From assembly GCA_049433545.1 (NCBI GenBank), contig JBMTEY010000001.1, positions 1-58,458 of the forward strand: a stretch of DNA of 58,458 nucleotides. Direction: 5' to 3'. Shown here one piece after another: positions 25,795 through 56,995 of the stretch. A program made the position numbers and the translations under genes. A model generated the notes under the pieces. That model was not told where the DNA came from and did not search any database. It saw nothing but the letters and a program-made list of their open reading frames with translations. Position 1 is the first letter of the stretch, and the number at the start of each line of letters is the position of its first letter. The DNA comes from Burkholderiales bacterium. GTDB taxonomy: Bacteria > Pseudomonadota > Gammaproteobacteria > Burkholderiales > SG8-41.

Positions 25795-27024
25795 CTAGCC
25801 ACGCCCGGCGCTGTCCACCCGATCGATCACGGCCCGCGGAATCAGGCTCAGCTTCACCAGAGGCTTCAGTGATTCATCGCTGCTCTGCTTGCAGAACTCG
25901 CGGATCGCAAGGAATGCCCGTGCCGCCGCCGTGTCGTTCCAGAACCACTGGTCGATGGCCTTCGCCGCGAGATTGCCGGGCTGCGCCGCGGCAGCCTCGA
26001 AATAGTACGCCTTGACGTCGTCGCAGGCGCGCTTCACCGCGACCCCGGCGCTCATGCCGGCGACGACGGGCAGTACGGGCGCATCGTCGAGATAAGCCAG
26101 CACGTGATTCACTGCGTCGTCCACCGTCGCGCCGAACACGCCCACGGTGGTGCGGCCGCGCCGTTTGCGCGCCAGGTCATACCATGGAGCCAGTTGCGCA
26201 ACCTCGTCGCGTAGGGCCTGGGCCAGTCCGCCCGCGCCGGTTTTGGCCGCGGCAAAGCTCACCGGGCAGGCAAATCCGGAATCAGCGGATGCGGCATCCG
26301 GCGCATCCTCCGGAAAATCCTCCAGCACCGGGCCTGATTTTTTTTCGAACAGGGCCAGCAGGCTGCGCAGCACCCTGCGCTGGAAGTCCGCTTCATTCGG
26401 GGAACCGAAGGGACGGCCGAGCATGAACGGCACCCACAACGCGCGCGACGGTTTGATCGCCGCGGTCTGCTCACGGATCAGGCTGATCTGCGCCGTCGCC
26501 ACGCCTTCGCGCTCGAGGTAGTGTCCGAGTGCGCCCACGGCGCACGTGCAGTTGGGTCAGACCGGTGTCAGCAATACCGCATCCACCTTGTCCTTTTTCA
26601 GCAGCGCCGCGAGCTCGCGGGCCTTGGCCTCGAGGGCTCGGACCGGCGCCGCGCCCATGAAAGCATAGTGATAGTCCGACACCGATCCCACCACGCCTTC
26701 AGCCTGCAGTTCTCGCAGGCGGTCAAGCGGAAACACCACGTTGACGTCTTCCTGGAAGCCGCTGCGGTCGAAGTTCACCGAGCTGTGGCTCATGATCAGG
26801 TCGGCGTGCGGCGTATCGCCAGGGATCACGCGGTAATCCGCCGCGCCCGGCGGAAACGGCCGGTCTCCGCGCACGTGCACCCCGGAGGTGGTGATGATCG
26901 CCACCCGGCGCTCGCGCAGCGGCGGCCCGGGCACGAACGGCGTCGCGCCGAAATCCGGCAGGTCGCGGATCTTGTCGAGATGGTGCTGCCGCTCAAATTC
27001 CGGAAGATCGCTCAATCGCGCCAT
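25795..27024 (-). CDS. GrdB/PrdB-family reductase selenoprotein-B homologue. One 409-residue frame with Sec (UGA) at codon 156 (comp. 26557-26559)
   Basis: ORF-track pieces 26557-27024 and 25795-26538 are in the same frame and separated only by one TGA. Read-through gives ...DKVDAVLLTPV-U-PNCTCAVGALGHYLEREGVATAQISLIRE... The N-terminal part (VAIITTSGVHVRGDRPF...DYRVIPGD...VVFPLDRLREL) looks GrdB/PrdB-like. A hairpin follows the UGA. Confidence 0.8.
26529..26559 (-). promoter_or_regulatory. UGA plus candidate bacterial SECIS hairpin (GrdB/PrdB-like gene)
   Basis: Minus strand: UGA, then 11 nt (CCCAACUGCAC), then a perfect 7-bp stem GUGCGCC / GGCGCAC with a GUG loop (26529-26545). Confidence 0.7.
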
Positions 27025-27052
27025 CTGCTGTCCTTTCGGTTGCCATTAATTA

Positions 27053-27667
27053 TCAGCGCTGATGCTTGCCCAAGTTCCAGCCGCTTTTCGCCAGGTGTTT
27101 CTCGCCGACGTGGATAGGCTCCTCCTCCAGCGGCGTCGCCATGGTGTCGTTCCAGCGGTTGAGGAAACCGAAGTTTGCTATGACTGCCACGATTTCCACG
27201 ATCTGCCCTTCGCTCCAGTGCTTCTTGAGTTCGGCGAACATCTCGTCTGTAACCGCATTGGGCTGTGCCGCGCCGGCAATCGCAACTTCCAGTGCCGCAC
27301 GTTCCGCCTCGGAAAACAATGAACTGGTGCGAAATTCCCAGACAGCCTCGAGTTTTTCTGCTTCAACGCCCAGCCGGAGCGCCGCCCCGGCAGTGTGCGC
27401 CATTCAGTAATGGCAACCGTGTGCACGGCTCGCGACGTGGGCCAGCATGCGTTTGAACGCCACCGTCACTTCACCCTGCGGATCCCATACCGCAGCAGCG
27501 AGCTGGGCCATAGCCAGAACCAGTTTGGGTTTGCGTTGCATGATCAGCATGCTGTTCGGCACGAAACCCAGCGTTCGCGTGTAGGTCTTGAACGCCTCCT
27601 GCAGTTCCGGTACGGCATCCTGCGGCAGGGGCGCAAGCCGCGGATCGGGTCGGTCATTTTGTTTCAT
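27053..27667 (-). CDS. AhpD/carboxymuconolactone-decarboxylase-like peroxidase-related selenoprotein. 204 residues with Sec (UGA) at codon 88 (comp. 27404-27406)
   Basis: ORF-track pieces 27404-27739 and 27053-27403 are in frame across a single TGA. Read-through gives HVASRAHGCHY-U-MAHTAG, which aligns with EVASNAAGCRYCTAHNAE of the Cys paralogue at 28786-29382. The similarity runs on both sides of the TGA. ATG 27667 is preceded by GGAGGA. Confidence 0.85.
27373..27406 (-). promoter_or_regulatory. UGA plus candidate SECIS hairpin (AhpD-like gene)
   Basis: Minus strand: UGA, then 12 nt (AUGGCGCACACU), then stem GCCGGGG / CUCCGGC (7 bp, one G-U pair) with loop CGGCG (27373-27391). Confidence 0.6.
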
Positions 27668-27683
27668 CAATGTTTCCTCCTGG

Positions 27684-28289
27684 TCAAGATTGTTTCGTCG
27701 GGTTCGGGTATTCAAGGCAGCGCAGCAGATTGCAGGCAATGGAATTCAACGCATCGCGGTCCGGATTGACCTTGCCGAACAGTCGCAATCCCTGGATGCC
27801 CGCAACCAGGAAACGGGCCAGCGCACGGACGTCAGCGTCGTCGGAAATTTCCCCGCGCCCCTGCCCGCGTGCCAGCGCTTCGGCAAACGAAACTTCGATG
27901 CGCTCCAGGCTGCGCCGGACCTTGACTGCAGTGGCATGATCGCGTCGCGCCAGTTCGGCGGCGCAGTTGCCGATGAAGCACCCGCGCCGCCCCGGGCCGG
28001 CGACGATGCGGTCTATCAGTTCGCCGACGAATCCGGCAATCGCATCCTGCACCGGCAGCGGCCGTTGCAGCGCGGTGTTGATGCGGGCCAGTCCCTGTTT
28101 TTCATAACGCTCGAGAGAACGGTGCAGCAGCGCGCGCTTGCCGCCGAATGTCGCATACAGGCTGGAGCGGCTGAGTCCGGTGGCCGCACACAGGTCGTCG
28201 AGCGACGTCGCTTTGTAGCCCTTGGCCCAGAACGCCTGCATCGCCTGTTCCAGTGCAATGTCGGGCTCGAACTCACGATGCCTTGCCAT
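27684..28289 (-). CDS. TetR/AcrR-family transcriptional regulator
   Basis: ALEQAMQAFWAKGYKATSLDDLCAATGLSRSSLYATFGGKRAL is a TetR N-terminal HTH. 201 aa. Confidence 0.88.
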   Translation of the reverse strand: MARHREFEPDIALEQAMQAFWAKGYKATSLDDLCAATGLSRSSLYATFGGKRALLHRSLERYEKQGLARINTALQRPLPVQDAIAGFVGELIDRIVAGPGRRGCFIGNCAAELARRDHATAVKVRRSLERIEVSFAEALARGQGRGEISDDADVRALARFLVAGIQGLRLFGKVNPDRDALNSIACNLLRCLEYPNPTKQS

Positions 28290-28292
28290 TAT

Positions 28293-28748
28293 TTATTTGA
28301 CAGCGCCTGCCGCCAGTCCGTTGAGCGCCTTGCGCAGATTCTGCGTCACCGCGCCGCAATCCCCGCCCTGCTTGTGGCGTGCGGCGAGAAACTGCGGATC
28401 GTTGTATCCCAGCCACACCTGTCCGGAGGCATCCTGCCAAGCCAGCGCCTTCAGCAGCAGATCAATGCCGCTGGACTGCGCGCACAGCATCAAAGGCGTG
28501 CCGCCCTGGGGATTGCCGAACACCAGCAATTCCGTCGGGCGCAGTTCCTTGCCGATTTTTTTCGCGCCGGCGGCATGATCCACGCGCAGGAAGATATTGA
28601 GTCCCTTGCCCTTGGCGGCCGCCTCGAAGCGGTCGAGGGTGTCCTTGACGCTGTGCGGGCTCTTCAGGGCGATCAGGCCGTCGGCAGACCATGCGGAAAA
28701 CGGCAGCAGCGACAGCAGCAATACAGCGGCAATACGCATCCTGTTCAT
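28293..28748 (-). CDS. DUF302-domain protein with signal peptide
   Basis: MNRMRIAAVLLLSLLPFSAWSA is a signal peptide. PTELLVFGNPQGGTPLM...IDLLLKALAWQD...VWLGYNDPQFLAARH is the DUF302 pattern. Confidence 0.8.
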   Translation of the reverse strand: MNRMRIAAVLLLSLLPFSAWSADGLIALKSPHSVKDTLDRFEAAAKGKGLNIFLRVDHAAGAKKIGKELRPTELLVFGNPQGGTPLMLCAQSSGIDLLLKALAWQDASGQVWLGYNDPQFLAARHKQGGDCGAVTQNLRKALNGLAAGAVK

Positions 28749-28785
28749 GGATTTCTCCGGTTATGTGACAGCACCCGCCCGATGC

Positions 28786-29382
28786 CTACTTGGCATGCAC
28801 CCCGGGATTCCAACCCGAAGCGGCGAGATGCTTGCGGGCAAATTCCAGCGGATGTTCCTCGAGTTGGGTTGCCAGCGTGTCGTTCCAGCGGTTGAGCCAG
28901 CCGAAGAACGAAATCACCGACACGATTTCGATGATCGCATCTTCCGAGAAATGTTTCTTCAACTCGTCGAAATGGGCATCCGTGGCGGACGGCGGACAGC
29001 CGCCGGCGGCCAGTGCCAGGCTGAGGGCAGCGCGCTCGGCCGCGGTGAACAGAGGACTGGTCTGGAACTGCCACAACGCATGCAGCTTTTCCTCGGGAAC
29101 CTTGCCGCGCTCGACCACGTTTTCGGCGTTATGCGCAGTGCAGTAGCGACAACCGGCGGCATTGCTGGCGACTTCCGCCACCATCAGGCGCAGCGCCGTC
29201 GGCACCTCGCCCGCATCGGCCATCACCGCTTCGCGCAGGGTCTGGATGGCGCGAAACACTTTCGGCCGCCGCGCCAGCGTCAGCCAGCTGTTGGGCACGT
29301 AACCGCGCTGTTTTTTCGATTTTTCGAAATCCGCCGCGAACTCGGCGATGCGTTCTGCTGAAGCCGATGAGACTCTGGCCAT
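28786..29382 (-). CDS. AhpD/CMD-like peroxidase-related protein (Cys form, CxxC). Resembles the rSAM/ArsS-associated peroxidase-like family
   Basis: GYVPNSWLTLARRPKVF...VASNAAGCRYCTAHN...IIEIVSVISFFGWLNRWNDTLATQLEE. ATG 29382 is preceded by GGAGGA. It is a paralogue of 27053-27667 and divergent from the radical SAM gene. Confidence 0.82.
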   Translation of the reverse strand: MARVSSASAERIAEFAADFEKSKKQRGYVPNSWLTLARRPKVFRAIQTLREAVMADAGEVPTALRLMVAEVASNAAGCRYCTAHNAENVVERGKVPEEKLHALWQFQTSPLFTAAERAALSLALAAGGCPPSATDAHFDELKKHFSEDAIIEIVSVISFFGWLNRWNDTLATQLEEHPLEFARKHLAASGWNPGVHAK

Positions 29383-29458
29383 TCCATTTCCTCCGGTTAA
29401 TCGTGTTTGCCCGGCGCGGCAATTTGGTTTGACTGCGCGCCGCGGGCGGCTGACGGTT

Positions 29459-29500
29459 TTCAATGTCTTGCCGCATCGACCTATTATAGAATGATCGTTC
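29459..29500 (+). promoter_or_regulatory. Candidate sigma70 promoter and near-palindromic operator for the radical SAM operon
   Basis: TTCAAT (29459-29464), a 17-nt spacer, then TATTAT (29482-29487). This is immediately followed by GAATGATCGTTC (29489-29500), which matches its own reverse complement at 10 of 12 positions. Confidence 0.3.
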
Positions 29501-29653
29501 CAGAATACAACCGTTGCCGTTTCGGCTCATCCCGGTAAACAAGCAGGCAGCGTCACGGTACGGGGCGAATCGTGATATGAAGCCGGTTGTAAGGAACGCC
29601 CGGAAATTCCGACCGATGGTTTTTGCTGTAAACCGAGTTCCAGGAGCCGTTTG

Positions 29654-30619
29654 ATGCATGCCACCCTGCCCTTGATGGAAGCCAGTGATTTCCCGGCGAT
29701 CCGCCGCCGGCGCACCGAAACGCTGCAGGTTAACCTCGGTTACAAGTGCAACCAGAGCTGCCTGCACTGCCACGTCAACGCCGGTCCCACCCGCACTGAA
29801 CTGATGTCGCAGGAAACCATCCTCGACGTGATCGCCTATCTGCAGTCCGCCGGCATCGGCACACTGGATGTCACCGGAGGCGCGCCGGAGCTGAACCCCC
29901 ATTTCCGCTCTCTGGTCGAAACCGCGCGCAAGCTCGGCATACGCGTCATCGACCGCTGCAACCTGACCATCCTGTTTGAACCCGGACAGGAAACACTCGC
30001 GCAATTCCTTGCCGGTCAACAGGTTGAAATCACCGCCTCGCTGCCGTGTTATTCCGCAGACAATGTCGACCGCCAGCGCGGCAAGGGCGTATTCGACGCC
30101 AGCATCCGTGCGCTGCAACTGCTGAACGGACTCGGTTACGGCCGGCCCGGTTCCGCGCTGAAACTGAACCTGGTCTACAACCCGCAGGGTCCGGTGCTGC
30201 CCCCCGCCCAGCCGCAGCTCGAGCTCGATTACAAAAAACGACTGGCCGACGACCATGGCATCGTGTTCAATGAACTGTATGTCATCACCAACATGCCGAT
30301 CCAGCGCTTCGGCAGCACGCTGGTCTCCAGGGGACAGTTCAATCAGTACATGAGCCTGCTGAAAAACGCCTACCAGCCGGCCAACCTGGAATCGGTGATG
30401 TGCCGCACGCAACTCTCGGTCGACTGGCAGGGATTTGTCTACGACTGCGATTTCAACCAGATGCTCGATCTGCCGCTGGCGTGGAAACATCGGCCACGCA
30501 CCCACCTGCGCGAGTTGATAGGGGCCGATCCCGCGGGTAACCCCATCGTGGTCAGGGACCACTGTTACGGCTGCACCGCCGGCCAGGGTTCCAGCTGCGG
30601 CGGCGCACTGGTCGACTGA
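29654..30619 (+). CDS. arsS: Radical SAM / Cys-rich C-terminal domain protein (ArsS / TIGR04167-like; Cys rather than Sec in the C-terminal motif)
   Basis: LQVNLGYKCNQSCLHCHVNAG (CxxxCxxC radical SAM cluster). The C-terminal Cys-rich tail reads VVRDHCYGCTAGQGSSCGGALVD. Confidence 0.8.
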   Translation: MHATLPLMEASDFPAIRRRRTETLQVNLGYKCNQSCLHCHVNAGPTRTELMSQETILDVIAYLQSAGIGTLDVTGGAPELNPHFRSLVETARKLGIRVIDRCNLTILFEPGQETLAQFLAGQQVEITASLPCYSADNVDRQRGKGVFDASIRALQLLNGLGYGRPGSALKLNLVYNPQGPVLPPAQPQLELDYKKRLADDHGIVFNELYVITNMPIQRFGSTLVSRGQFNQYMSLLKNAYQPANLESVMCRTQLSVDWQGFVYDCDFNQMLDLPLAWKHRPRTHLRELIGADPAGNPIVVRDHCYGCTAGQGSSCGGALVD

Positions 30620-30640
30620 CAGCCATCCCCGTCCTGAGGC

Positions 30641-32032
30641 ATGACGATGATAGAACCGATTTTCGCGGTGTATTTCTGGGGTTTCCTGATCCTCTACGGC
30701 GGCGTGATGTACGCCATCTCGCCGCAGTCCCGCACCAGCGCCAGCTTCTTCACCGGCAGCGACGATGCCGGCCGCCCGGCGACCGAATGGGCCCTGATCT
30801 GCAGCATCTTCATCAGCTGGATATTCGCCAAATCGGTGACCAATGCAGCCAACCTCGGTGCCGCCTACGGCATCGTCGGCGGGCTGGCCTATGCCATGTA
30901 CTGGCTGTCGATACCGGTCGCCGGCATCGTCATCTACCGTTTGCGCACGCGCCATGGCGCAACCGGCCTGGTATCGTTCCTGATCGGCCGCTACGGGCGG
31001 CTGGCGGCGCTGGCGTTCACGCTCGCCATCCTGATCCGGCTCTACAACGAAGTGTGGAGCAACACCGCGGTCGTCGGCGCCTATTACGGAAAGGCCGGAG
31101 AGTGGACCTTCATCGCCTCGGCGCTGCTGTTTACTGCGGCCACTCTTTTCTACAGCATGAAGGGCGGACTGCGCAGTTCGATAGTCACCGACGTGATCCA
31201 GGCCGTGCTGTTCGTCATCGTGCTCGGCGTGGTGCTGTTCCTGGTCTTGCCCAAGCACGGACTGGGCACGCTGCTGTCGGTGGGTGATTTCCGGCTCAAC
31301 GCCGGCGTCGACCTGCTGCTGGTGGCGCTGCTGCAGGTGGTGTCATACCCGTTCCACGACCCGGTGCTCACCGACCGCGGCTTCATCACCCGCGAAAAAA
31401 CCATGCTGCGCGCGATGATCGTCGCCGGCGTGCTCGGCTTCATCTGCATTTTCGCCTTCAGCCTGGTCGGCGTGCACGCCAAACTCGAAGGTCTGCCGAC
31501 CGGCGACAACATGCCCGGCGCGGTGGCGCTGGCCTTCGGCACCCTGCCCTACCTGATGATGACCGTGGTGATGATCATGGCGGCGGGCTCGACGCTGGAC
31601 TCGACGTTTTCGTCGGTCGCCAAGTCCATCGGCCAGGAACTGCCGATGCTCGCCGGGCGGCTGCCGGGACCGCGTGCGATGGTCATCGGCATGTGGACCA
31701 TGCTGGCGTTCGCGATACTCGGCAACCTGCCGATGATCGCCGGCACCGACATCCTCAAGGCCACCACGGTCAGCGGCACCATGGTGATGGGCCTGGCGCC
31801 GGTGTTCCTGCTGGCGCCGCTGGTTAAACATTCGCCATGGAGTTTCCATCTCGCATTTTGGCCTGGCGTGATCCTCGGTGTCCTGCTCGCAGGCGGCGGC
31901 ATTCCGCAGGCCTGGGCCATCGGTGACGGCAAATATGCGCTGCTGCTCGGCACCAACCTCTACGGTCTGCTGATCTGCATTGCCGGCTTCCTCGCGCCGG
32001 TGATATGGCAGCGGCTGCGCGCGGCACGCTGA
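30641..32032 (+). CDS. Sodium:solute symporter (SSS) family transporter, substrate unknown
   Basis: 463-aa polytopic protein. SMKGGLRSSIVTDVIQAVLF resembles the SSS signature. It begins 21 nt after arsS. Confidence 0.7.
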   Translation: MTMIEPIFAVYFWGFLILYGGVMYAISPQSRTSASFFTGSDDAGRPATEWALICSIFISWIFAKSVTNAANLGAAYGIVGGLAYAMYWLSIPVAGIVIYRLRTRHGATGLVSFLIGRYGRLAALAFTLAILIRLYNEVWSNTAVVGAYYGKAGEWTFIASALLFTAATLFYSMKGGLRSSIVTDVIQAVLFVIVLGVVLFLVLPKHGLGTLLSVGDFRLNAGVDLLLVALLQVVSYPFHDPVLTDRGFITREKTMLRAMIVAGVLGFICIFAFSLVGVHAKLEGLPTGDNMPGAVALAFGTLPYLMMTVVMIMAAGSTLDSTFSSVAKSIGQELPMLAGRLPGPRAMVIGMWTMLAFAILGNLPMIAGTDILKATTVSGTMVMGLAPVFLLAPLVKHSPWSFHLAFWPGVILGVLLAGGGIPQAWAIGDGKYALLLGTNLYGLLICIAGFLAPVIWQRLRAAR

Positions 32033-32036
32033 CCGC

Positions 32037-33029
32037 ATGCAACCCGGACGCAGCTGCCCCCTGCACTACCGCTATGCGCCGCAATCGCTGCGCCGGCCGC
32101 CGGAAATCCTGGCCGACACGCTGTATGTGATCGGCGGACTCTACGGCAACCTTCCCGCGTTGCAGGCCGTATCTGCGCTGGCCGCGGCCGAGCCGGAGCC
32201 GGTGGCGCTGGTGTTCAACGGCGACTTCAACTGGTTCAACATCGACGGCGGCGGATTTTCGGCGATCAATGAAACCGTGCTGCAACACCACGCGCTGCGC
32301 GGCAACGTTGAAACCGAACTCGCCGGGGATGACGATGAGGCGGGCTGCGGCTGCGCCTATCCGGACAGCGTCGGCGACGAGGAAGTCGCCCGCTCCAATG
32401 CCATGCTCGCGCAGTTGCGCGCCACCGCGCGCAGGTTTCCGGACCTGCGCTCCCAGCTCGCCGCGCTGCCGATGAACCGGGTCGCCGAAGTCGGCGGCCT
32501 GCGCATTGCCATCGTACACGGCGACTGTGAATCGCTGGCCGGCTGGTCGTACGACGAATCGGCTTTCCGCGGCACCACCGGCAGCACGCGCCTCGCCGCA
32601 CATTTCGCCGCCAGCGGCGCGCGCATCATCGCCAGCAGCCACACCTGCCTGCCGGTGGCGCTGCGCCAGCGCAGGCCACAGGGCGACTGCGCGCTGTTCA
32701 ACAACGGCGCGGCCGGCATGCCCAATTTCGCCGGCACCCAATTCGGGGTGATCACGCGGATAGCAACCACCCCCGCGCGCCCATCGGCCGCGCTCTACGG
32801 CACAGTCATCCATGGCGTGCACATTGATGCGCTGGCCGTGCACTACGATTCCGCACAATGGCAACAGGACTTCGCAGCCAACTGGCCGGCCGGCAGCGCC
32901 GGATACCTGTCCTATCACCGGCGCATCACCCAGGGCCCGCGCCACGGCATCAACAAGGCCCTGCACAAGGGCATCCACCTCAATCCTGAACTGCTGCGCG
33001 GACTGCGCGCCAGCGAGGCGATTCAATGA
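32037..33029 (+). CDS. Hypothetical protein with degenerate metallophosphoesterase-like motifs
   Basis: LYVIGGLYGN, VFNGDFNWFN, LRGNVE, IVHGD and SSHTC loosely follow calcineurin-like phosphoesterase motif order, but the first motif lacks the canonical Asp/His. It begins 4 nt after the transporter gene. Confidence 0.5.
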   Translation: MQPGRSCPLHYRYAPQSLRRPPEILADTLYVIGGLYGNLPALQAVSALAAAEPEPVALVFNGDFNWFNIDGGGFSAINETVLQHHALRGNVETELAGDDDEAGCGCAYPDSVGDEEVARSNAMLAQLRATARRFPDLRSQLAALPMNRVAEVGGLRIAIVHGDCESLAGWSYDESAFRGTTGSTRLAAHFAASGARIIASSHTCLPVALRQRRPQGDCALFNNGAAGMPNFAGTQFGVITRIATTPARPSAALYGTVIHGVHIDALAVHYDSAQWQQDFAANWPAGSAGYLSYHRRITQGPRHGINKALHKGIHLNPELLRGLRASEAIQ

Positions 33030-35158
33030 AAAAAAGCAAACTGCTGGTATTCGCACTGATCGCCGCGGGCATCGTCGCGTTTTTTGCATTCGACCTGAAG
33101 CAGTACTTCACCCTGGATTATTTCCAGGCACAGCGCGCGGCGATCGATGCCGAAGTCCAGTCCCGGCCGTTGCGCTCGGCCCTGCTGTTTTTTGCCGCCT
33201 ATGTCGCGGTCACCGGGCTGTCGCTGCCGGGTGCCGCCATCATGACGCTGGTGGCGGGCGCGGTGTTCGGCCTGCTGTGGGGCACGATCATCGTGTCATT
33301 CGCCTCGACTTTGGGTGCCACGCTGGCCTTCCTCGCCTCTAGATTCCTGCTGCGCGACTGGGTGCAGGACAAATTCGGCGACAAGCTGCGGCCGATCAAC
33401 GACGGCATCGCGCGCGAAGGCGGTTTTTACCTGTTTGCGCTGCGCCTGGTGCCGGCCTTTCCGTTTTTCGTGATCAACCTGGTGATGGGCCTGACGTCCA
33501 TCCGCACCTGGACCTACTACTGGGTCAGCCAGCTCGGCATGTTTGCCGGCACCGTGGTATACGTCTACGCCGGCACCCAGCTCGGGGAATTCCGCATTTC
33601 GGCGGGACTGATCGGCGCCTTCGTGCTGCTGGGCCTGTTCCCGCTCGCCGCGAAAAAAACCCTGGACGCGCTGAAGGCGCGCAAGGTCTACGCCGGCTGG
33701 AACCGGCCCGCGCGTTTCGACCGTAACCTCGTCGTCATCGGCGCCGGCTCGGCAGGGCTGGTCTCCGCCTACATCGCTGCGGCGGTGAAAGCGAAAGTGA
33801 CGCTGGTCGAGAAACACAGGATGGGCGGCGACTGCCTGAACACCGGCTGCGTGCCGTCCAAGGCGCTGATCAAGTCGGCGAAACTGCTGGCGACCATGAA
33901 ACACGCCAGCAACTACGGCCTGAAGGACACGCAGGTGGATTTCGACTTTGCCGAGGTCATGGAACGCGTGCAACGCGTGGTCCGTAAAGTCGAGCCCCAT
34001 GATTCCGTCGAACGCTACACCGCGCTGGGCGTCGAATGCATCAGCGGCGAGGCAAAGATCACTTCGCCGTGGAGCGTCGAAGTGAAAACCCCCGCGGGCG
34101 CGCAGACGCTGACCACGCGCGGCATTGTCATTGCCGCCGGCGCGCGCCCCTTCGTGCCGCCGATACCCGGGATCAACGATGTCGGCTGCCTGACCTCTGA
34201 CACGGTGTGGGAACTGCGCACACTGCCGAAACGCCTGGTGGTGCTCGGCGGCGGCCCGATCGGCTGCGAACTGACGCAGTGTTTCGCCCGTCTAGGCTCA
34301 CAGGTCATCCAGGTCGAGATGCTTCCGCGGATCATGATCCGCGAGGATCCGGAAATTTCCGACATGGTGCTGCAGAAATTCCGTGCCGAAGGCGTCAGCG
34401 TGCTGGTGAACCACAAGGCGCAGCGCTTCGCGGTCGAAAACGGTGAAAAAGTCCTGTACTGCGAAAACGAAGGCCGCGAAGTGCGCATCACCTTCGACGC
34501 ACTGCTGTGCGCGGTCGGCCGCGTCGCCAACACCTCAGGCTACGGCCTCGAGGAACTCGGTATCCCGGTGACGAAATCGCGCACCGTCGAAGTCAACGAA
34601 TTCCTGCAGACCAGATACCCGAACATCCTCGTTTGCGGCGATGTCGCCGGACCGTACCAGTTCACCCACACCGCGGCGCACACCGCCTGGTATGCCGCGG
34701 TCAACGGCCTGTTCGGCGGGTTCAAAAAATTCCGTGTTGATTACTCGGTGATCCCCTGGGCCACGTTTACCGACCCCGAAGTCGCGCGCGTCGGCCTCAA
34801 TGAAACCGAGGCCAGGGAAAAAAACATTTCCTGCGAAGTCACCACCTACGGCATCGACGACCTCGACCGCGCCATCGCTGACGGTACTGCGCACGGCATG
34901 GTCAAGGTATTGACCGTGCCCGGCAAGGACAAGATCCTGGGCGCCACCATCGCAGGCGAGCATGCCGGCGACCTGATCACCGAATTCGTCACCGCAATGA
35001 AACACGGCATCGGACTCAACAAGATCCTCGGTACCATCCACATCTACCCGACGCTCGCCGAAGCCAACAAGTACGTGGCAGGGAACTGGAAGCGCGCACA
35101 CGCGCCCCAAGCATTGCTGGAATGGGTGGAGAAGTTTCATGCGTGGCGGCGAGGATAA
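33026..35158 (+). CDS. Fusion protein: TVP38/TMEM64 (DedA-like) membrane domain plus FAD-dependent pyridine nucleotide-disulfide oxidoreductase (mercuric/glutathione reductase-like)
   Basis: The N-terminal ~220 aa are multi-TM (VSFASTLGATLAFLASRFLLRDWV...LRLVPAFPFFVINLVMG). These are followed by LVVIGAGSAGLVSAY, the redox-active GGDCLNTGCVPSK, a second Rossmann motif VVLGGGPIGCE, and a dimerisation domain. ATGA overlap with the upstream gene. Confidence 0.85.
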   Translation: MKKSKLLVFALIAAGIVAFFAFDLKQYFTLDYFQAQRAAIDAEVQSRPLRSALLFFAAYVAVTGLSLPGAAIMTLVAGAVFGLLWGTIIVSFASTLGATLAFLASRFLLRDWVQDKFGDKLRPINDGIAREGGFYLFALRLVPAFPFFVINLVMGLTSIRTWTYYWVSQLGMFAGTVVYVYAGTQLGEFRISAGLIGAFVLLGLFPLAAKKTLDALKARKVYAGWNRPARFDRNLVVIGAGSAGLVSAYIAAAVKAKVTLVEKHRMGGDCLNTGCVPSKALIKSAKLLATMKHASNYGLKDTQVDFDFAEVMERVQRVVRKVEPHDSVERYTALGVECISGEAKITSPWSVEVKTPAGAQTLTTRGIVIAAGARPFVPPIPGINDVGCLTSDTVWELRTLPKRLVVLGGGPIGCELTQCFARLGSQVIQVEMLPRIMIREDPEISDMVLQKFRAEGVSVLVNHKAQRFAVENGEKVLYCENEGREVRITFDALLCAVGRVANTSGYGLEELGIPVTKSRTVEVNEFLQTRYPNILVCGDVAGPYQFTHTAAHTAWYAAVNGLFGGFKKFRVDYSVIPWATFTDPEVARVGLNETEAREKNISCEVTTYGIDDLDRAIADGTAHGMVKVLTVPGKDKILGATIAGEHAGDLITEFVTAMKHGIGLNKILGTIHIYPTLAEANKYVAGNWKRAHAPQALLEWVEKFHAWRRG

Positions 35159-35205
35159 TACATAACCCGTTGTTTTTATTGATATTTATTAAAAAATTGC
35201 TGTTC

Positions 35206-36018
35206 ATGCTGTTGCTGGCCGTCGCCCCTTTCCCGGCATCCGCGCAAGCTTTCGATCACGATCACAAAGCCTGGGACGCGCTGCTGAAAAAACATGTCGT
35301 GCTGATCGACGGCGGCAAGGCATCGCAGGTGCGCTATGCCGGCTTTGCGCAGGAGCCCGCCGCGCTGAAAACTTACCTTGGCACCTTGTCAAAAGTCAGT
35401 GCGCAGGAATTCTCCGGCTGGAGCAAACCGCAGCAGATGGCCTTCCTTATCAACGCCTACAACGCGTACACCGTCGAGAAAATCCTCACTCGCCATCCCG
35501 ACATCCGCTCGATCTGGGATTTCGGGAAAATTTTCGGCAATCCGTTCAAGGACAAATTCTTCAAACTGCTCGGCCGCGACTTTTCGCTGGACATGATCGA
35601 GCATGAAACCCTGCGCAAGCCCGGCGCCTACAACGAGCCACGCGTGCACTTCGCGGTGAACTGCGCCTCGGTGGGCTGCCCGATGCTGCGTGAGGAAGCC
35701 TACGTCCCCACGCGTCTCGATGCGCAGCTCGAGGAACAGACGCGGCGTTTCCTCTCGGATCGCAGCCGCAACCGCTACAACCCGCAGAGCAACACGCTGG
35801 AAGTTTCCGAAATCTTCAAATGGTTCAGCGAGGACTGGACCAGCGGCTATCGCGGCTTTGAAGGAAAAAATCCGGCGATCCAGTCGCGCGAGCAATTCTT
35901 CGCGGCGTACGCAACGCTGCTTGCCGACAGCCCCACCCAGCAGCAGGCCATCGCCGACCGCAAGGCCGGCATCTCGCATCTGGATTATGATTGGGCATTG
36001 AACGTCGCAAAGAAATAA
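35206..36018 (+). CDS. DUF547-domain protein, probably exported
   Basis: AFLINAYNAYTVEKIL...VHFAVNCASVGCPML...EVSEIFKWF is the DUF547 pattern. The N-terminus MLLLAVAPFPASAQA is signal-like. The true start may be an upstream TTG near 35178. Confidence 0.78.
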   Translation: MLLLAVAPFPASAQAFDHDHKAWDALLKKHVVLIDGGKASQVRYAGFAQEPAALKTYLGTLSKVSAQEFSGWSKPQQMAFLINAYNAYTVEKILTRHPDIRSIWDFGKIFGNPFKDKFFKLLGRDFSLDMIEHETLRKPGAYNEPRVHFAVNCASVGCPMLREEAYVPTRLDAQLEEQTRRFLSDRSRNRYNPQSNTLEVSEIFKWFSEDWTSGYRGFEGKNPAIQSREQFFAAYATLLADSPTQQQAIADRKAGISHLDYDWALNVAKK

Positions 36019-36036
36019 TCCCTCTCCGGCTCTCCC

Positions 36037-36723
36037 GTGTCGCTGTCCATCATCATTCCGGCACTCAATGAAGCCGGCAACATTCCGGAACTGCTTGAAC
36101 GCCTGCAGCCGCTGCGGCGGCGCGGCGTGGAAGTCGTCGTCGTCGACGGCGGCAGCACGGATGCCACTGCAACACTCGCCGAAGCCGGTGCTGACAAGGT
36201 CCTGATCACGGCCCCCGGCCGCGCGCGCCAGATGAACGTCGGCGCCGCTGCAGCCGGCGGTGAAATCCTCTGCTTCCTGCACGCCGACTCGCAACTGCCG
36301 GATAACGCCGACGGCCTGATCATCGACGGCCTCAGCCGCGGCCGGCGCAGCTGGGGACGCTTCGACGTGCGCATCGCCGGCAACCACGCAATGCTCGACG
36401 TCATCGCGTGGATGATGAACTGGCGTTCGCGGCTGACCGGCATCGCCACCGGCGACCAGGGTCTGTTCGTCACACGATCACTGTTCGAGGCCGCCGGGAG
36501 ATTCCCGGAAATCGCGCTGATGGAAGACATCGCGTTATCGCGGCAACTCAAGGTCTACGGTCCGCCGCTGTGCCTGTCGCACCGGCTCACCACTTCCGGC
36601 CGGCGCTGGGAAAAACACGGGCTGTGGCGCACCATGCTGCTGATGTGGCGGCTGCGCCTGGAATTCTGGCTGGGCGCCGACCCGGACAAACTCGCCTTGC
36701 GTTATGCCCGGCACAAACCCTGA
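36037..36723 (+). CDS. Family-2 glycosyltransferase-like protein (TIGR04283-like, rSAM/selenodomain-associated transferase 2)
   Basis: LSIIIPALNEAGNIPELLERL...VVVVDGGSTDAT...FLHADSQLP (GT-A fold with DxD-like motif). GTG start at 36037. Confidence 0.75.
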   Translation: MSLSIIIPALNEAGNIPELLERLQPLRRRGVEVVVVDGGSTDATATLAEAGADKVLITAPGRARQMNVGAAAAGGEILCFLHADSQLPDNADGLIIDGLSRGRRSWGRFDVRIAGNHAMLDVIAWMMNWRSRLTGIATGDQGLFVTRSLFEAAGRFPEIALMEDIALSRQLKVYGPPLCLSHRLTTSGRRWEKHGLWRTMLLMWRLRLEFWLGADPDKLALRYARHKP

Positions 36724-37351
36724 TTTCACGATCCTGGTGTTTGCCAAGGCGCCGCTGGCCGGCCAGGTGAAAACACGGCTGATTCCGCTGCTCGGTGCAG
36801 CCGGCGCGGCCGCTTTGCACCGGCAGCTGCTGGCCCATGCGCTCGGCATCGCGCGCAGCGCCTCTGCGGGTTCTCTCGAATTGTGGTGCACTCCCGACAC
36901 CGCGCATCCCTTTCTGCAAACCGTCGCCCGCACCCGTGACGCAAGCCTGCGCCTGCAGCAGGGCGCGGATCTCGGCGCACGCATGGCCCATGCTTTCGCG
37001 GACGCATTGCGGATGCACGAACGCGCAATCTGCATCGGCGCCGATTGCCCCGCATTGGCCGCACTGCATCTGCGTGATGCCGACGCAGCATTGCGCAACG
37101 GCAATGACGCCGTATTCGTGCCGGCCGAGGACGGCGGTTACGCGCTGGTCGGGCTCGCGCGCCGCGTGCCCGATATTTTCAACGGCATCGACTGGGGTGG
37201 ACCGCAGGTCATGGCGCAGACCCGTGCGCGCATGCGCGCAGCCGGAGTGCGCTGGCATGAACTGGAAACCCTGTGGGACGTCGACCGCCCGGAGGATCTG
37301 CAGCGCCTGCAACAGTCCGGCTGGCACGACCATGCACCTGTCGCGGACTGA
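36704..37351 (+). CDS. DUF2064 / CofC-MobA-like nucleotidyl- or glycosyl-transferase (TIGR04282-like, transferase 1)
   Basis: ILVFAKAPLAGQVKTRLIPLLG...IGADCPAL...VFVPAEDGGYALVGL...IDWGGPQV. 20-nt overlap with the upstream gene. Confidence 0.75.
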   Translation: MPGTNPDFTILVFAKAPLAGQVKTRLIPLLGAAGAAALHRQLLAHALGIARSASAGSLELWCTPDTAHPFLQTVARTRDASLRLQQGADLGARMAHAFADALRMHERAICIGADCPALAALHLRDADAALRNGNDAVFVPAEDGGYALVGLARRVPDIFNGIDWGGPQVMAQTRARMRAAGVRWHELETLWDVDRPEDLQRLQQSGWHDHAPVAD

Positions 37352-38069
37352 ACGGCTGGCGGTTCTGGCAGTGCTGCTTGCTGCCGGTACCGCCTTTGCC
37401 GTCGGCGACCGCATCAGCGCCGGGGCGTTTTCGGCGGTGCCGCCAGGTAACGCGTTGCCGGCCGGTTGGACCATCAAGGACTCGCCGAACATCAAGGTAC
37501 ATACCCGCTACTCGCTGGTCGACGACAACGGCTCCACCGTGCTGCGCGCCGATTCCGCGGCAGGCGCGGCGGGCATCGGCCGCGAACTGAAGGTAAATCC
37601 GGCGGAATTTCCGCTGCTGCGCTGGCGCTGGAAAGTCGCCAACCTGATCGAGCAGGCCGACCTGCGCACCAAGGAAGGCGACGATTTCCCAGCACGCATT
37701 TACGTCACCTTCGACTATCCGCTGGAAAAACTGCCTTTCTTCGAGCGCAGCAAGCTGCGGCTTGCGCGCACTTTCTTTGATCCGCAATTGCCGGCGGCAA
37801 CGCTGTGCTACGTGTGGGACGGCAAGGTGCCGGCGGAAACCATCGCGCCCAGCGCCTATACCGACCGCGTGCGCCTGATCGTGGCGGAATCCGGCCCGGC
37901 GCGGGTCGGCGAGTGGGTGGCCATGGAACGCAACATCGCGCGTGACTTCCGCGCGGCATTCGGCGAAGCCGCGCCGCCGGTGAACGGCATCATCATCGCC
38001 ACCGACAGCGACAATACTGGCGCCAAAGCAACAGCCTTTTATGGCGACATTTTCTTTTATAAACAATAA
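37332..38069 (+). CDS. DUF3047-domain protein with signal peptide
   Basis: MHLSRTERLAVLAVLLAAGTAFA is a signal peptide. LRWRWKVANLIEQADLRTKEGDDFPARIYVTFD is the DUF3047 pattern. In the ORF track it is hidden inside the long ORF 36795-38069. 20-nt overlap with the upstream gene. Confidence 0.75.
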   Translation: MHLSRTERLAVLAVLLAAGTAFAVGDRISAGAFSAVPPGNALPAGWTIKDSPNIKVHTRYSLVDDNGSTVLRADSAAGAAGIGRELKVNPAEFPLLRWRWKVANLIEQADLRTKEGDDFPARIYVTFDYPLEKLPFFERSKLRLARTFFDPQLPAATLCYVWDGKVPAETIAPSAYTDRVRLIVAESGPARVGEWVAMERNIARDFRAAFGEAAPPVNGIIIATDSDNTGAKATAFYGDIFFYKQ

Positions 38070-53454: not shown

Positions 53455-53480
53455 GCCGCGCGGCAGGCATGCGCTACACT
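53453..53480 (+). promoter_or_regulatory. Candidate promoter for selA-selB
   Basis: TTGCCG (53453-53458), a 16-nt spacer, then TACACT (53475-53480). Confidence 0.35.
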
Positions 53481-53576
53481 GCGTCTTCGTTATTCCAAGC
53501 CGCAATTTTCCGCAGCAAACCCCGCACTGATCTGCAGCCCGATGACTCCGATGCCACGCCGCATGGCCACGCCGCC

Positions 53577-54980
53577 ATGGTGAATCCCGCTGAAGCCGCG
53601 CGTCGCGCGTTGCCTTCGGTCGATCGCCTGCTCGGCAGTAGCGCGGTGGCGGACCTCATCACGACCTACGGCCGTACCCGCGTAACCGCAGTGCTGCGCG
53701 ATGCGCTCGACGCCGAGCGCGCAAGGCTGGCGCACCCTGATGCCGCCGCCTGGAACGAAACCACTTTCCTGAAAACCTATGCCGCACTGCTGCGAGATTC
53801 CGTCGCCCCCTCGCTGAAACCGGTGTTCAACCTCACCGGCACCGTGCTGCACACCAACCTCGGCCGCGCGGTGATGCCGCAGAGCGCCGCCGCCGCGGTG
53901 ATGGCGGCGATGACCAACCCGGTGAACCTCGAATTCGATCTCGCTACCGGTACCCGCGGCGAACGCGACAGCCATGTCGAACGCCGCCTGATCCAGCTCA
54001 CCGGCGGCGAGAAGGCGGTGGCCGTCAACAACAACGCCGCGGCGGTCTATCTCGCTCTGAACACGCTGGCGCTGAAACGCGAAGTGCTGGTGTCGCGCGG
54101 CGAACTGATCGAAATCGGCGGCGCCTTCCGCATCCCCGACATCATGTCACGCGCCGGAGTGAAACTGGTCGAAGTCGGCACCACCAACCGCACCCACCTC
54201 AAGGACTATGCCGAGGCGATCACGCCGCGCACCGCCGCGATCATGAAGGTGCACACCAGCAATTACGTGGTGCAGGGATTCACCGCGGCAGTGCCCGAGC
54301 CGGAACTGGCGAAACTCGCGCATGAACACGATCTGCCGTTCATCGTCGACCTCGGCAGCGGCACGCTGATCGACCTCGAGCACTACGGCCTACCGCACGA
54401 GCCGACGCCGCGCGAAGCACTCGCCAACGGCGCAGACGTCGTCACCTTCAGCGGCGACAAGCTGCTCGGCGGCCCGCAGGCCGGCCTGCTGACCGGTCGC
54501 CGCGACCTGATGGCGCGCATCGCCAAAAACCCGATGAAACGCGCGCTACGCCTCGACAAGCTGACGCTGGCTGCGCTCGACGCCGTGCTGCGGCTCTACC
54601 TGCACCCCGAACGCCTGCATGAGGAACTGCCTGCACTGCGCTGGCTGACACGCACCCCGGAAGACATGGCGGCACAGGCCGCGCGCCTGCAGCCGGCACT
54701 GGCAGCGGCACTGGGGGAACAGTGGAAAGTCGAGACCGTTGACTGCAAATCGCAGATCGGCAGCGGCGCGCTGCCGGTCGACTCGCTGCCGGGCAAGGCC
54801 CTCGCCGTCAGCCCCGCCGTGAAAAAAGGCAACCTCAACAAGCTCGCCGCCGCCTTTCGCGACCTGCCGCTGCCGGTGATCGGCCACATCCGCGACGGCG
54901 CGCTGGTGTTCGACCTGCGCTGCCTGGACCGCGAGGACGAATTTGCGGCGCAACTGCAACAGCTGAAGATCCCGAAATGA
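53577..54980 (+). CDS. selA: L-seryl-tRNA(Sec) selenium transferase
   Basis: LPSVDRLLGS...NLTGTVLHTNLGRA...NNNAAAVYLAL...GGAFRIPDIM...FSGDKLLGGPQAG (PLP Lys). I prefer the start at 53577. The ORF-track ATG at 53469 would lie upstream of the candidate -10 box. Confidence 0.92.
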   Translation: MVNPAEAARRALPSVDRLLGSSAVADLITTYGRTRVTAVLRDALDAERARLAHPDAAAWNETTFLKTYAALLRDSVAPSLKPVFNLTGTVLHTNLGRAVMPQSAAAAVMAAMTNPVNLEFDLATGTRGERDSHVERRLIQLTGGEKAVAVNNNAAAVYLALNTLALKREVLVSRGELIEIGGAFRIPDIMSRAGVKLVEVGTTNRTHLKDYAEAITPRTAAIMKVHTSNYVVQGFTAAVPEPELAKLAHEHDLPFIVDLGSGTLIDLEHYGLPHEPTPREALANGADVVTFSGDKLLGGPQAGLLTGRRDLMARIAKNPMKRALRLDKLTLAALDAVLRLYLHPERLHEELPALRWLTRTPEDMAAQAARLQPALAAALGEQWKVETVDCKSQIGSGALPVDSLPGKALAVSPAVKKGNLNKLAAAFRDLPLPVIGHIRDGALVFDLRCLDREDEFAAQLQQLKIPK

Positions 54981-56995
54981 TCATCGCCACCGCGGGTCAC
55001 ATCGACCACGGCAAGACGCTGCTGGTCAAAACCCTGACCGGCACCGACACCGACCGCCTGCCCGAGGAAAAGGCGCGCGGCATCTCGATCGACCTCGGCT
55101 TCGCCTACCTGCCGCTGGACGGCGGCGGCCTGATCGGTTTTGTCGACGTCCCGGGCCACGAACGCTTCATCCGCAACATGCTCGCCGGCGTGTCGGGCAT
55201 CGATTATGCGCTGCTGGTGGTCGCCGCGGACGACGGCGTAATGCCGCAGACCGTCGAACACCTGCAGATCCTCGACCTGCTGCATATCCGCCGTGGAGCG
55301 GCAGTCATTACAAAAATCGACCGTGTCGATGCCGCGCGCGTCGAGCAGGTCAGCGCCCAGGTGCGTGCACTGCTGGCGCCGACGCGGCTCGCCGATGTCG
55401 CGATCCACCCGGTGTCTGCGGTCAGCGGCGCCGGCATGGCCGAACTGAAGACAGTGCTGCTGCGCGAAGCTGCGGCGCAGAACCAGCGCAGCGCCGAAGG
55501 ACAGCACCTGCGTTACGCCATCGACCGGGCGTTCAGCATCGCCGGCAGCGGCACCGTAGTCACCGGCACGGTGTTCAATGGCAACGTAAGAACCGGCGAC
55601 AAGCTGGTGATTTCACCCGCGGGACGCGAAGTGCGCGTGCGCAGCATCCAGATCCACGGCAAAGCCGCGGACCAGGCGCGCGCCGGCGAACGCTGCGCGC
55701 TGAACCTGACCGGCGCCGACGTCGAATCGGTGCGCCGGGGCGACTGGGTAATGGCTGCGGCGATCCACCGACCGACGCAGAAACTCGACGTGCGGCTGAG
55801 CGTGCTGCAGGCCGAGGCACATCCGCTGAAGCACTGGACGCCGGTGCATCTGCATCTCGCCACCGCCGACGTCACCGCGCGCGTGTCGCTGCGCCGCGGT
55901 GAGGCGCTGGCTCCGGGCAAGGACATCATCGCGCAGCTGGCGCTCGACGAACCGGTATCCGCGCTGCACGGCGACCGTTTCATCCTGCGTGACCAGTCTT
56001 CGACGCGCACCGTCGGCGGCGGCACCATCATTGATCCCGCCCCGCCCGCGGCACGGCGCAGCAAGGCGCGCGACGCCGTGCTCGCCGCGCTGGAGTCCGC
56101 GGACGCCACCAACGCGCTCACCGCGCTGAGCGCCGGCGGCAAACCGGTAGACCTCGCGCACTTTGAAGCGGTCTTCAACCTGCTGCCCGAAGTCGCCGCC
56201 GCGGAATACGCGCGCGCCGACCTCCTGCCGCTGGGCAAGGACCGCCGCATCGCCATCACCGGCACGCGCCTGGCCGCCGTCCACGAAGCCGCCGTCAAAC
56301 AGCTGCGCGCCTTCCACCAGGCGCAGCCACAGGCGACGGGCTTGGAAATCGAAACCCTGCGCGCGACGCTGGCACCTGAACTCGACGGCGACGCCTTCGG
56401 CCATGCGCTGCGCCTGCTCGCCGACAAACGCACGATCGAAATCCACAGTTCGCTCGCGCGTATTCCCGGCCACGACAGCACCGCCAACAGCGCCGATACG
56501 CGGATGTGGGAAACCGTGCAGCCGGTGCTGCTGGCGGCCGGCTTCAATCCGCCGCCGCTGAAGGAACTGGCGCCGCTGCTGAAAATCAAGGATGCGCTGC
56601 TCAAGGATTTTCTGTATCGCCAGACGAAGGCCGGCAATCTCTACCGCGTTGGCGCCGAAAGGTTTTACCTCAAAAACACCATGGCCGTGCTGGCCGCGAC
56701 AGCGCAAGCAGTCTGCGCAAAACAGCCGAGCGGCCAGTTCACCGCGGCACAGTACCGCGACGCCACCGGCATAGGCCGCACGCTGGCGATCGAGATTCTC
56801 GAAACGCTGGACTCACTGACCGTCACCCAGCGCATCGGTGACGCGCGCAAGATGCGCAAGGACTTCGCGCCCATACTCGGCGCCGCCGATCCGGCGCCAC
56901 CGCCACCGCCGGGTGCTGCAGCCAAGGCACAGTCGCAGAAGCCGGCGGCGCACAAACCGCAGCAACGCCCCCCTTTCCGCAACAAACGTTATTGA
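54977..56995 (+). CDS. selB: Selenocysteine-specific translation elongation factor
   Basis: [44 protein letters not shown]...DVPGHERFI...TKID, plus winged-helix C-terminal domains. ATGA overlap with selA. It carries an unusual Pro/Lys/Gln-rich tail of about 40 aa. Confidence 0.93.

Follow-up and report, generated by a model that had tools for sequence, protein, structure and literature searches.

Does a cluster of 13 genes, in which an ArsS-type radical S-adenosylmethionine (SAM) enzyme and two transferases lie beside two selenoprotein genes, encode a single pathway, or does it bring together modules of separate function? The question is raised by positions 25795-38069 of a 58,458-nt stretch of DNA from an uncultured Burkholderiales bacterium, hereafter referred to as the window. 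Eight of the genes form the right arm of the locus (+ strand, 29654-38069), with gaps or overlaps of +21, +4, -4, +44, +18, -20 and -20 nt, and five form the left arm (- strand, 25795-29382), with gaps of 28, 16, 3 and 37 nt; a divergent intergenic region of 271 nt (29383-29653) separates the two arms. An earlier note on this DNA had proposed that all 13 genes serve one uncharacterised pathway for an organic selenium or arsenic compound. The 13 open reading frames (ORFs), their strands and spacing, the 271-nt region, both in-frame TGA codons and the selAB genes 15 kb away were re-derived in the present analysis, and nearly all of the domain assignments were recovered by hidden Markov model scans, the exceptions being the SSS transporter, with a weak assignment, and the phosphoesterase, with no profile match.

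The relatives of ArsS were searched in one genome per species, which yielded at least 594 relatives, and the best 80 loci were examined. Gene content was counted in the 59 species loci whose sequence extends for 8 kb or more downstream of arsS. The left arm was searched in metagenome contigs using its PrdB-like protein as the anchor, and 52 contigs of at least 5 kb were found to carry the PrdB-like gene. Bit-score cut-offs are the curated NCBIfam/TIGRFAMs values, and L-numbers are used where individual loci need to be told apart.

The locus is probably best understood as two adjacent, divergently transcribed modules in a variable slot between xseB and a Rieske-oxygenase gene, and not as one 13-gene pathway. 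Module 1 (29589-38069, + strand) would be an eight-gene ArsS-type operon driven by a predicted promoter of the extracytoplasmic function (ECF) sigma type, and module 2 (25795-29511, - strand) a TetR-autorepressed operon for two selenoproteins, an AhpD-like protein with a CxxC motif and an exported DUF302 protein. As a full-length member, the right arm belongs to the widespread ArsS cluster type, for which the NCBIfam name is arsenosugar biosynthesis. The most likely role of module 2 is in thiol/selenol redox reactions; the module would have settled beside arsS in one lineage and may serve arsS from outside the core pathway.

Pairing and predicted separate control of the two arms

If all 13 genes served one pathway, as the earlier note proposed, the left arm would carry out thiol/selenol steps on the arsenic- or selenium-containing small molecule of the right arm, for example the selenocysteine (Sec)-dependent reduction of pentavalent methylarsenicals to the trivalent substrate of ArsS. 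Such a step would suit the requirement of ArsS for trivalent dimethylarsenite, DMAs(III), which is unstable in air. The genomic setting of the cluster argues otherwise. Close relatives have the cluster in a slot flanked by xseB-ispA-dxs and by a Rieske oxygenase-rhodanese gene pair, and the content of this slot varies: four genes in L004, five genes with an ArsM-like gene included in L005, eight genes in the order seen in the window in L001 and L002, and eight genes together with the left arm in the window and in L081. L001 and L002 are the closest species loci among the best 80, with ArsS identities of 83% and 79%, and in both of them xseB abuts arsS directly. PrdB-like, AhpD-like Sec (AhpD-U) or TetR genes were found within 10 kb of arsS at none of the 80 species-level loci, these two relatives included, and the claim that the 13 genes form one conserved unit is therefore not sustained. 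The Rieske oxygenase and rhodanese genes were themselves considered as cluster members and rejected, being conserved only as a flank in close relatives, where they directly follow shorter clusters (L004).

The pairing of the two arms is real but confined to one lineage. Left-arm genes adjoin arsS in 17 of the 52 PrdB-like contigs, so that the co-occurrence expected by the earlier note was observed in one betaproteobacterial sub-lineage while being absent from all 80 species-level loci. Nearly all of the positive cases share the xseB flank and are therefore not independent of one another, which counts against a single pathway; in its favour, the adjacency has outlasted several changes of gene order and insertions. 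TctC and OsmC genes are inserted in the left arm of L081, the TetR gene comes first in L086, and the arms are separated by a DUF2282-DUF692-DUF2063-DoxX operon of the bufferin type in L092, L093, L098, L109 (5618-7714), L110 and L115. Different flanks are seen in a single case, L134, where no more than about 150 bp separate the start of the PrdB-like gene from a series of arsS, SSS transporter, phosphoesterase and TVP38-FAD genes. A DUF302 gene stands near arsS without selenoprotein genes in L003 (with ECF sigma and NrsF genes) and L028, and a fusion of ArsM with an AhpD domain of the CxxU type has been catalogued as family NF041537, both of which would suit a shared pathway; the AhpD-like protein of the window, however, has no NF041537 match, and the PrdB-like genes of other contigs occur with TctC, CoA-transferase and enoyl-CoA hydratase genes and no arsS nearby. 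The presence of bufferin genes with both arms suggests a composite metal-stress island. A bufferin-type copper-defence cluster was also observed beside the arsS and selenoprotein genes of L134 (12478-15462).

The control elements of the two arms are separate as well. Comparison of loci revealed a conserved 30-bp element (Table 1) with, on the - strand, a -35 hexamer TTGTAT (29510-29505), a 16-nt spacer containing the palindrome GAAyGATCrTTC and a perfect -10 hexamer TATAAT (29488-29483). This element is conserved in 12 loci (L081-L087, L110, L114, L117, L119 and L120), and in L110 the left arm's first gene follows it after 62 nt, with arsS 2.6 kb away. It appears to have the classic layout of a TetR-repressed promoter and to belong to the left arm. 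An inverted-repeat finder returned nothing in the intergenic region, the imperfect palindrome being visible only by locus comparison, and a sigma-70 consensus scan of 29300-29700 reported no promoter because the -35 hexamer matches the consensus at only 3 of 6 positions. A scan of 25400-38400 against Rfam (E <= 1) gave chance-level matches only, with no riboswitch in the divergent region.

Upstream of arsS, a general form of the predicted ECF-type motif, GTAAGRA-N14/15-CGAC, has its 5' end 55-100 nt before the arsS start in most loci, and it is found also at arsS loci without the left arm. A strict search of 4.4 Mb, with both strands counted, gave 38 matches, of which 27 share the strand of arsS and precede it by less than 250 nt; elsewhere the motif precedes TVP38-FAD, MTA phosphorylase (MTAP) and DUF2064-ArsM genes and an operon with an ECF sigma gene (L012). 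The Caulobacter sigmaF site, GTAACC-N16-CGAA (PMC3511200), was found in its exact form upstream of arsS in L134 and beside ECF sigma and NrsF genes in L003. Since the exact sigmaF motif also precedes arsS, the arsS clusters would have ECF-type promoters of two kinds. In both L003 and L134 arsS has ECF sigma and NrsF genes next to it, and in Caulobacter sigmaF-NrsF controls bufferin operons (PMC11626156). Exact sigmaF sites were noted at 9937-9962 (-) and 15840-15865 (-) in L134, where the motif lies upstream of both arsS and the bufferin-type DUF692 operon on the same contig, at 3793 (-) and 3835 (+) in L003, and at 9507 and 9538 in L028. The arsS cluster appears to belong to a metal(loid)/oxidant-stress regulon under ECF control, and with such a promoter module 1 would be expected to behave as a metal(loid)- or oxidant-stress-induced unit. 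The palindrome and -10 hexamer stay with the left arm and the ECF-type motif stays with arsS, a division that speaks against one unit and against one pathway.

One pathway comprising all 13 genes is thus considered unlikely, and some functional coupling between the arms is entertained as a tentative possibility. The more specific proposal that the PrdB-like and AhpD-like selenoproteins together with the DUF302 protein constitute, in aerobic betaproteobacteria, a Sec-dependent module dedicated to reduction in the biosynthesis of organoarsenicals is doubtful; such a module might regenerate trivalent dimethylarsenite for ArsS, or carry out a reductive processing of the adenosylated intermediate.

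The ArsS-type operon and its candidate chemistry

The radical SAM protein passes the TIGR04167 equivalog cut-off by 160 bits (Table 1), which settles the family membership that the earlier note had left to be checked. The protein also has a PF12345 (DUF3641) match of 186.5 bits, a CX3CX2C motif (CNQSCLHC) and the C-terminal sequence CYGCTAGQGSSCGG. With ArsS so far above the cut-off and the eight-gene arm syntenic in L001 and L002, the description of the locus as divergent does not apply. The radical SAM, GT2 and DUF2064 genes correspond, as the earlier note had it, to the TIGR04167/TIGR04283/TIGR04282 set, all three above their cut-offs. The GT2 and DUF2064 genes co-occur among the 59 loci (Fisher p = 1e-8), and the DUF2064 protein also matches CofC with 43 bits.

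ArsS from Synechocystis adenosylates DMAs(III), giving 5'-deoxy-5'-dimethylarsinoyl-adenosine (DDMAA) (PMC13598754), and PMC12159101 gives the same activity with reference to Cheng et al. 2021. The enzyme of the window would likewise transfer a 5'-deoxyadenosyl group from SAM onto dimethylarsenite, a reaction shown for the family. Adenine would next be removed from DDMAA, some relatives encoding an MTA phosphorylase in the cluster; arseno-ribose-1-phosphate would then be nucleotide-activated by the CofC-like TIGR04282 protein, and the TIGR04283 GT2 protein would transfer the activated arseno-ribose to an acceptor to give an arsenosugar or arsenosugar lipid. At the membrane, the TVP38/DedA-FAD reductase may provide the reducing power by which the arsenical is kept trivalent or bound to thiol. 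Probable lineage-specific accessories are the SSS-like transporter, the altered, Cys-rich phosphoesterase and two exported proteins, DUF547 and DUF3047, and the methylated arsenic substrate would come from an unlinked ArsM or from uptake.

The absence of arsM had been taken in the earlier note as a hint of a product other than a classical arsenosugar. The absence itself holds, no ArsM homologue being detected in the 58 kb, but an ArsM-like gene is present in the arsS cluster at only 13 of the 80 loci, and a missing arsM is therefore the usual state and not a sign of new chemistry. In several of these loci the gene directly follows arsS (L005, L013), and in L005 it does so in the same xseB-flanked slot as in the window. 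The best NCBIfam matches of the ArsM-like proteins are all arsenite methyltransferases. They keep the Cys motifs YYGCG, SNCVVNL and ECLGGA, which bind As(III) in ArsM structures. An MTAP gene was identified in 6 of the 80 loci (TIGR01694, 275.8 bits, cut-off 274.85) and a gene for a PiT-type permease, recognised from sequence alone, in 2. One cultured strain, Pseudogulbenkiania subflava DSM 22618 (L012, 2890-13793), carries three copies of the ECF-type motif together with genes for MTAP, TIGR03169, HD-GYP, ECF sigma, DUF2064, ArsM-like, PiT-like permease, ArsS, TVP38-FAD and GT2 proteins, and would be a good experimental model.

The same neighbours bear on a reading in which the element processed by the right arm is not arsenic but selenium or a different chalcogen or metalloid, the ArsS homologue adenosylating methylated selenium and the transferases building a selenosugar-like product. 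A TIGR03169 oxidoreductase, belonging to a family found fused to SelD, is encoded in 14 of the 80 clusters (353 bits, cut-off 310), but the sole characterised member of the ArsS family acts on DMAs(III). Some TIGR04167 members are selenoproteins, yet the Sec position of the family is occupied by Cys in all 95 ArsS homologues examined. The window contains selAB and a binding protein of the TIGR04553 'putative selenate' ABC type, the transporter lying 19 kb off and outside the syntenic block; and the ArsM-like neighbours, although under the ArsM cut-offs, retain the As(III)-binding Cys motifs. A selenium product is accordingly regarded as very improbable.

The promoter evidence and the membrane proteins could also be accommodated by a general ECF-controlled envelope-stress system, concerned for instance with the modification or flipping of a lipid or carrier, in which a membrane component is the target of the TVP38/DedA-reductase, of GT2 and of the two exported proteins DUF547 and DUF3047, and arsenic is not the radical SAM substrate in these bacteria. 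The ECF-type promoters, the adjacent ECF sigma and NrsF genes, the co-location with bufferin-type copper defence, the DedA-family membrane domain and the lack of an adjacent arsM in most clusters are in keeping with it. The margin by which ArsS passes its equivalog cut-off, and the recurrence of ArsM-like, MTAP and PiT-type phosphate/arsenate permease genes within the clusters, make this system improbable.

Several points weigh against the two-module, arsenic-directed reading preferred here. The left arm stays next to arsS through rearrangements (L086, L109, L134), which fits a closer functional tie than the one proposed, and the promoter assignments of both arms derive only from sequence motifs. 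The window has no arsM or MTAP gene and no ECF sigma gene, so that the genes for substrate supply and for the regulator are presumed to lie outside it. The ArsM-like proteins of the relatives fall below every curated ArsM cut-off (170.8 versus 263 bits). A literature search found no demonstrated step after ArsS in any organism, in agreement with the earlier note in so far as most of the chemistry past the ArsS step is undescribed, and no functional study for DUF3047, DUF547, TIGR04282 or TIGR04283. Arsenosugars are known from cyanobacteria and algae and are not known from heterotrophic betaproteobacteria.

The accessory genes of the right arm vary in their distribution (Table 1). The SSS transporter assignment is weak: the protein of the window scores far below its family cut-off and its Pfam SSF match is below threshold; the orthologues in L084 and L086 carry PF00474. 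The next protein, described earlier as a degenerate phosphoesterase, has no Pfam, NCBIfam (E <= 1) or PDB sequence match, and lacking the NCBIfam match it cannot be placed in the phosphoesterase family mentioned in the earlier note. Its AlphaFold model (pLDDT 91.5) has as best Foldseek match SapH (3qfm, E 6.5e-11, target-normalised TM-score 0.71-0.75), and numerous further metallophosphoesterases rank below it, which bears out the fold. Degeneracy is a less fitting term. Across 30 homologues motif I reads GGLYGN without exception where DxH would be expected; motif III has GNVE for GNHE and motif V SHTC for GHTH, while GD (D63) and HGD (H161) are retained. Two metal ligands of motif I are lost, C104-G-C106 and C204 are invariant, and C7 and C164 nearly so. 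With the replaced motif I and the CGC invariant across homologues, the metal site is taken to be remodelled and not decayed, and the pattern of Cys residues would be suited to a soft-metalloid ligand, As(III) for example. The phosphoesterase and ArsM were considered as mutually exclusive alternatives, and this was rejected (1 overlap, p = 0.22, not significant).

The TVP38-FAD fusion carries the disulfide motif CLNTGC and matches NF004991 with 506 bits (cut-off 620). Its identification as MerA was rejected, with 366 versus 454 bits for TIGR02053, no C-terminal Cys pair, and a VTT domain at the N-terminus in place of NmerA. The DUF547 gene, for which 35122 is another possible start, is always accompanied by the TVP38-FAD gene (14 of the 14 loci having DUF547, among the 59); a PDB sequence search with its product gave no match. 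In L083, where ArsS is 99% identical, the DUF3047 gene was observed to be broken into two ORFs of 194 and 48 aa (7892-8629). As the gene counts in the 59 loci show these genes to be variably present elsewhere, the window is the fullest version of a known neighbourhood.

Table 1. Features of the locus and related elements in the window (bit scores with cut-offs in brackets; occurrence as number of the 59 loci unless stated otherwise)
Feature	Position	Strand	Matches and motifs	Occurrence
PrdB/GrdB-like selenoprotein, 409 aa	25795..27024	-	Sec at TGA 26557-26559, LLTPV-U-PNCTC	
SECIS-like hairpin of the PrdB-like gene	26529..26545	-	7-bp stem, 3-nt loop; starts 11 nt past the TGA	
AhpD/CMD-like selenoprotein, 204 aa	27053..27667	-	Sec at TGA 27404-27406, GCHY-U-MAH (CxxU)	
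SECIS-like hairpin of the AhpD-like gene	27373..27391	-	8-bp stem; starts 12 nt past the TGA	
TetR-family regulator	27684..28289	-	PF00440, PF16925 (TetR_C_13)	most left-arm versions
Exported DUF302 protein	28293..28748	-	PF03625 66 bits; signal-peptide-like N-terminus	
AhpD/CMD-like protein, CxxC type, first gene of the left arm	28786..29382	-	PF02627 42 bits; TIGR01926 72.8 bits	
Predicted left-arm promoter with putative operator	29482..29511	-	conserved 30-bp element ATTATAGAATGATCRTTCCAGAATRCAA	
Predicted ECF-sigma-type promoter motif	29589..29613	+	GTAAGGA-N14-CGAC; 3' end about 40 nt before the arsS ATG	sole copy in the window
ArsS-family radical SAM protein, Cys type	29654..30619	+	TIGR04167 460.5 bits (300); PF04055, PF12345	
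Divergent SSS-like membrane transporter	30641..32032	+	TIGR00813 40.6 bits (184)	follows arsS in 7
Metallophosphoesterase-fold protein, altered metal site	32037..33029	+	AlphaFold/Foldseek	24
TVP38/DedA (VTT) and class I FAD disulfide oxidoreductase fusion, 710 aa	33026..35158	+	PF09335, PF07992, PF02852	38
Exported DUF547 protein	35206..36018	+	PF04784 97 bits; NCASVGC	14
GT2 glycosyltransferase	36037..36723	+	TIGR04283 282.6 bits (182)	43
DUF2064 protein, CofC/MobA-type nucleotidyltransferase-like	36704..37351	+	TIGR04282 204.5 bits (134)	44
Exported DUF3047 protein	37332..38069	+	PF11249 244 bits	18
selA	53469..54980			
selB	54977..56995			

The selenoprotein module

Both selenoproteins of the left arm are genuine, as indicated by conserved TGA codons, Cys homologues, covariation of the bacterial selenocysteine insertion sequence (SECIS) elements and the presence of selAB in the window. 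The earlier note had placed two selenoprotein genes and a regulator beside the radical SAM set, and they are indeed there. No selC, selD or tRNA gene was detected within the 58-kb window. The TGA of the PrdB-like gene is preserved in 66 of 66 homologous loci, and Cys takes the place of Sec in two full-length homologues (P0141 and P0216); the AhpD-like TGA is preserved in 31 loci. The stem of the PrdB-like hairpin is paired in 175 of 175 cells over 25 distinct sequences, with 1 compensatory pair and 4 wobble-only variable pairs, and synonymous sites within it are nearly invariant whereas neighbouring synonymous sites vary. In the AhpD-like hairpin 94% of the cells are paired, with 3 compensatory pairs and a covariation score reached by 0 of 500 shuffles. 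Single-sequence folding energies of the two hairpins are no better than those of shuffled sequences (z 0.23 and -0.84) and are unremarkable at this G+C content; the support for SECIS elements therefore comes from covariation.

The PrdB-like protein has a Sec motif of the UxxCxC type and scores below the cut-offs of both TIGR04483 (108.9 bits, cut-off 300) and TIGR01918 (56.8 bits, cut-off 65.45). It matches PF07355 (GRDB) with 43 bits (cut-off 22) over the last 70 model positions only, and its C-terminal part of about 180 aa matches no known domain. A PDB sequence search gave no match, and the model of its Cys homologue P0216 is poor (pLDDT 68) and without a useful Foldseek match. None of the partners PrdA, GrdA, GrdC, GrdD and GrdE is found among the annotated proteins of the window. 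The AhpD-like selenoprotein matches PF02627 with 40.8 bits and falls just under the TIGR01926 cut-off (74.7 bits, cut-off 81.8), and its paralogue at the head of the left arm has CRYC where the selenoprotein has CxxU. In L085 the TetR gene was observed to be broken into ORFs of 136 and 77 aa (4488-5073); this split gene and the split DUF3047 gene of L083 may reflect decay or sequencing errors.

Further genes of the window lie outside the two modules. The selenate-type binding protein belongs to a PhnCDE-like ABC transporter at 7526-10106 (- strand) and passes TIGR04553 with 372 bits (cut-off 250); PhnD-like ABC genes were seen inside the arsS clusters of 6 species. A 447-aa FAD oxidoreductase at 40794-42137 (- strand) has as its sole NCBIfam match the selenoprotein subtype of type III sulfide:quinone reductase (97 versus 525 bits). 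A ChrA chromate transporter homologue is encoded at 17702-19252 (+ strand), 6.5 kb from the left arm, and ChrB and ChrA are syntenic in L084.

Significance and comparison with known systems

The window is one instance among hundreds of such loci and is not exceptional, and both of its selenoprotein families are already catalogued. The present analysis adds the predicted ECF-type promoter of the arsS clusters and the NrsF, bufferin and DUF302 genes that repeatedly accompany them, the remodelled phosphoesterase and the lineage-specific link to a PrdB-like selenoprotein. The cluster type names candidates for the steps of arsenosugar or arsenolipid formation that follow ArsS, namely the MTA phosphorylase of relatives, the CofC-like nucleotidyltransferase, the GT2 protein and the membrane disulfide reductase. 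As it occurs in cultured and tractable strains such as Pseudogulbenkiania subflava, Piscinibacter sakaiensis, Rubrivivax rivuli and Pseudomonas peli, the question is directly testable, and the ECF-type promoter and the NrsF/bufferin company suggest metal(loid) or oxidant stress as inducing conditions. If the dedicated Sec module were true, the use of selenium would be linked mechanistically to the chemistry of arsenic natural products, and the environmental 'PrdB' selenoproteins would receive a first function, a lead only if the coupling is real.

The predicted promoter resembles that of the Caulobacter sigmaF-NrsF regulon, with GTAACC-N16-CGAA there and GTAAGG-N15-CGAC in the window, and NrsF and bufferin genes lie beside arsS in relatives. 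Unlike that system, the window has no sigF or nrsF gene, and the commonest ECF sigma adjacent to related loci is TIGR02943; a literature search found no report of arsS as a member of the Caulobacter regulon.

With PrdB and GrdB the left-arm selenoprotein shares about 190 residues of homology, Sec in a UxxC-type motif at the homologous place and a bacterial SECIS element after the Sec codon. It differs in scoring under both family cut-offs, in its extra helical C-terminal part of about 180 residues, in the absence from the window of a PrdA, GrdA, GrdC or GrdE partner, and in its host, an aerobic-type betaproteobacterium. Similar 'PrdB' selenoproteins are abundant in the environment and have been counted in ocean metagenomes (PMC2398784). 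The second selenoprotein is like the AhpD-like CxxU family (TIGR01926/CMD), which is among the listed prokaryotic selenoproteins (PMC13188914), in its CMD domain, its CxxU motif and the Cys paralogue next door, and is unlike it in the score just below the cut-off.

The closest characterised counterpart of the right arm is the cyanobacterial ArsM-ArsS system of Synechocystis sp. PCC 6803, with which it shares the radical SAM family, the CX3CX2C motif and a Cys-rich DUF3641 C-terminus, and, in related loci, an ArsM-like gene directly after arsS. It is distinguished by the lack of arsM in the window, the larger cluster, the heterotrophic betaproteobacterial host and the predicted ECF-type promoter, and the ArsM-like genes of relatives score 92 bits against a cut-off of 400 for the cyanobacterial 'arsenosugar ArsM' model. 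For TIGR04282 and TIGR04283, in the NCBIfam neighbourhood formed with TIGR04167, a biochemistry can be suggested from the family names only; to this neighbourhood itself the right arm corresponds in full, with all three families above their cut-offs in one operon, of which the window holds a maximal version.

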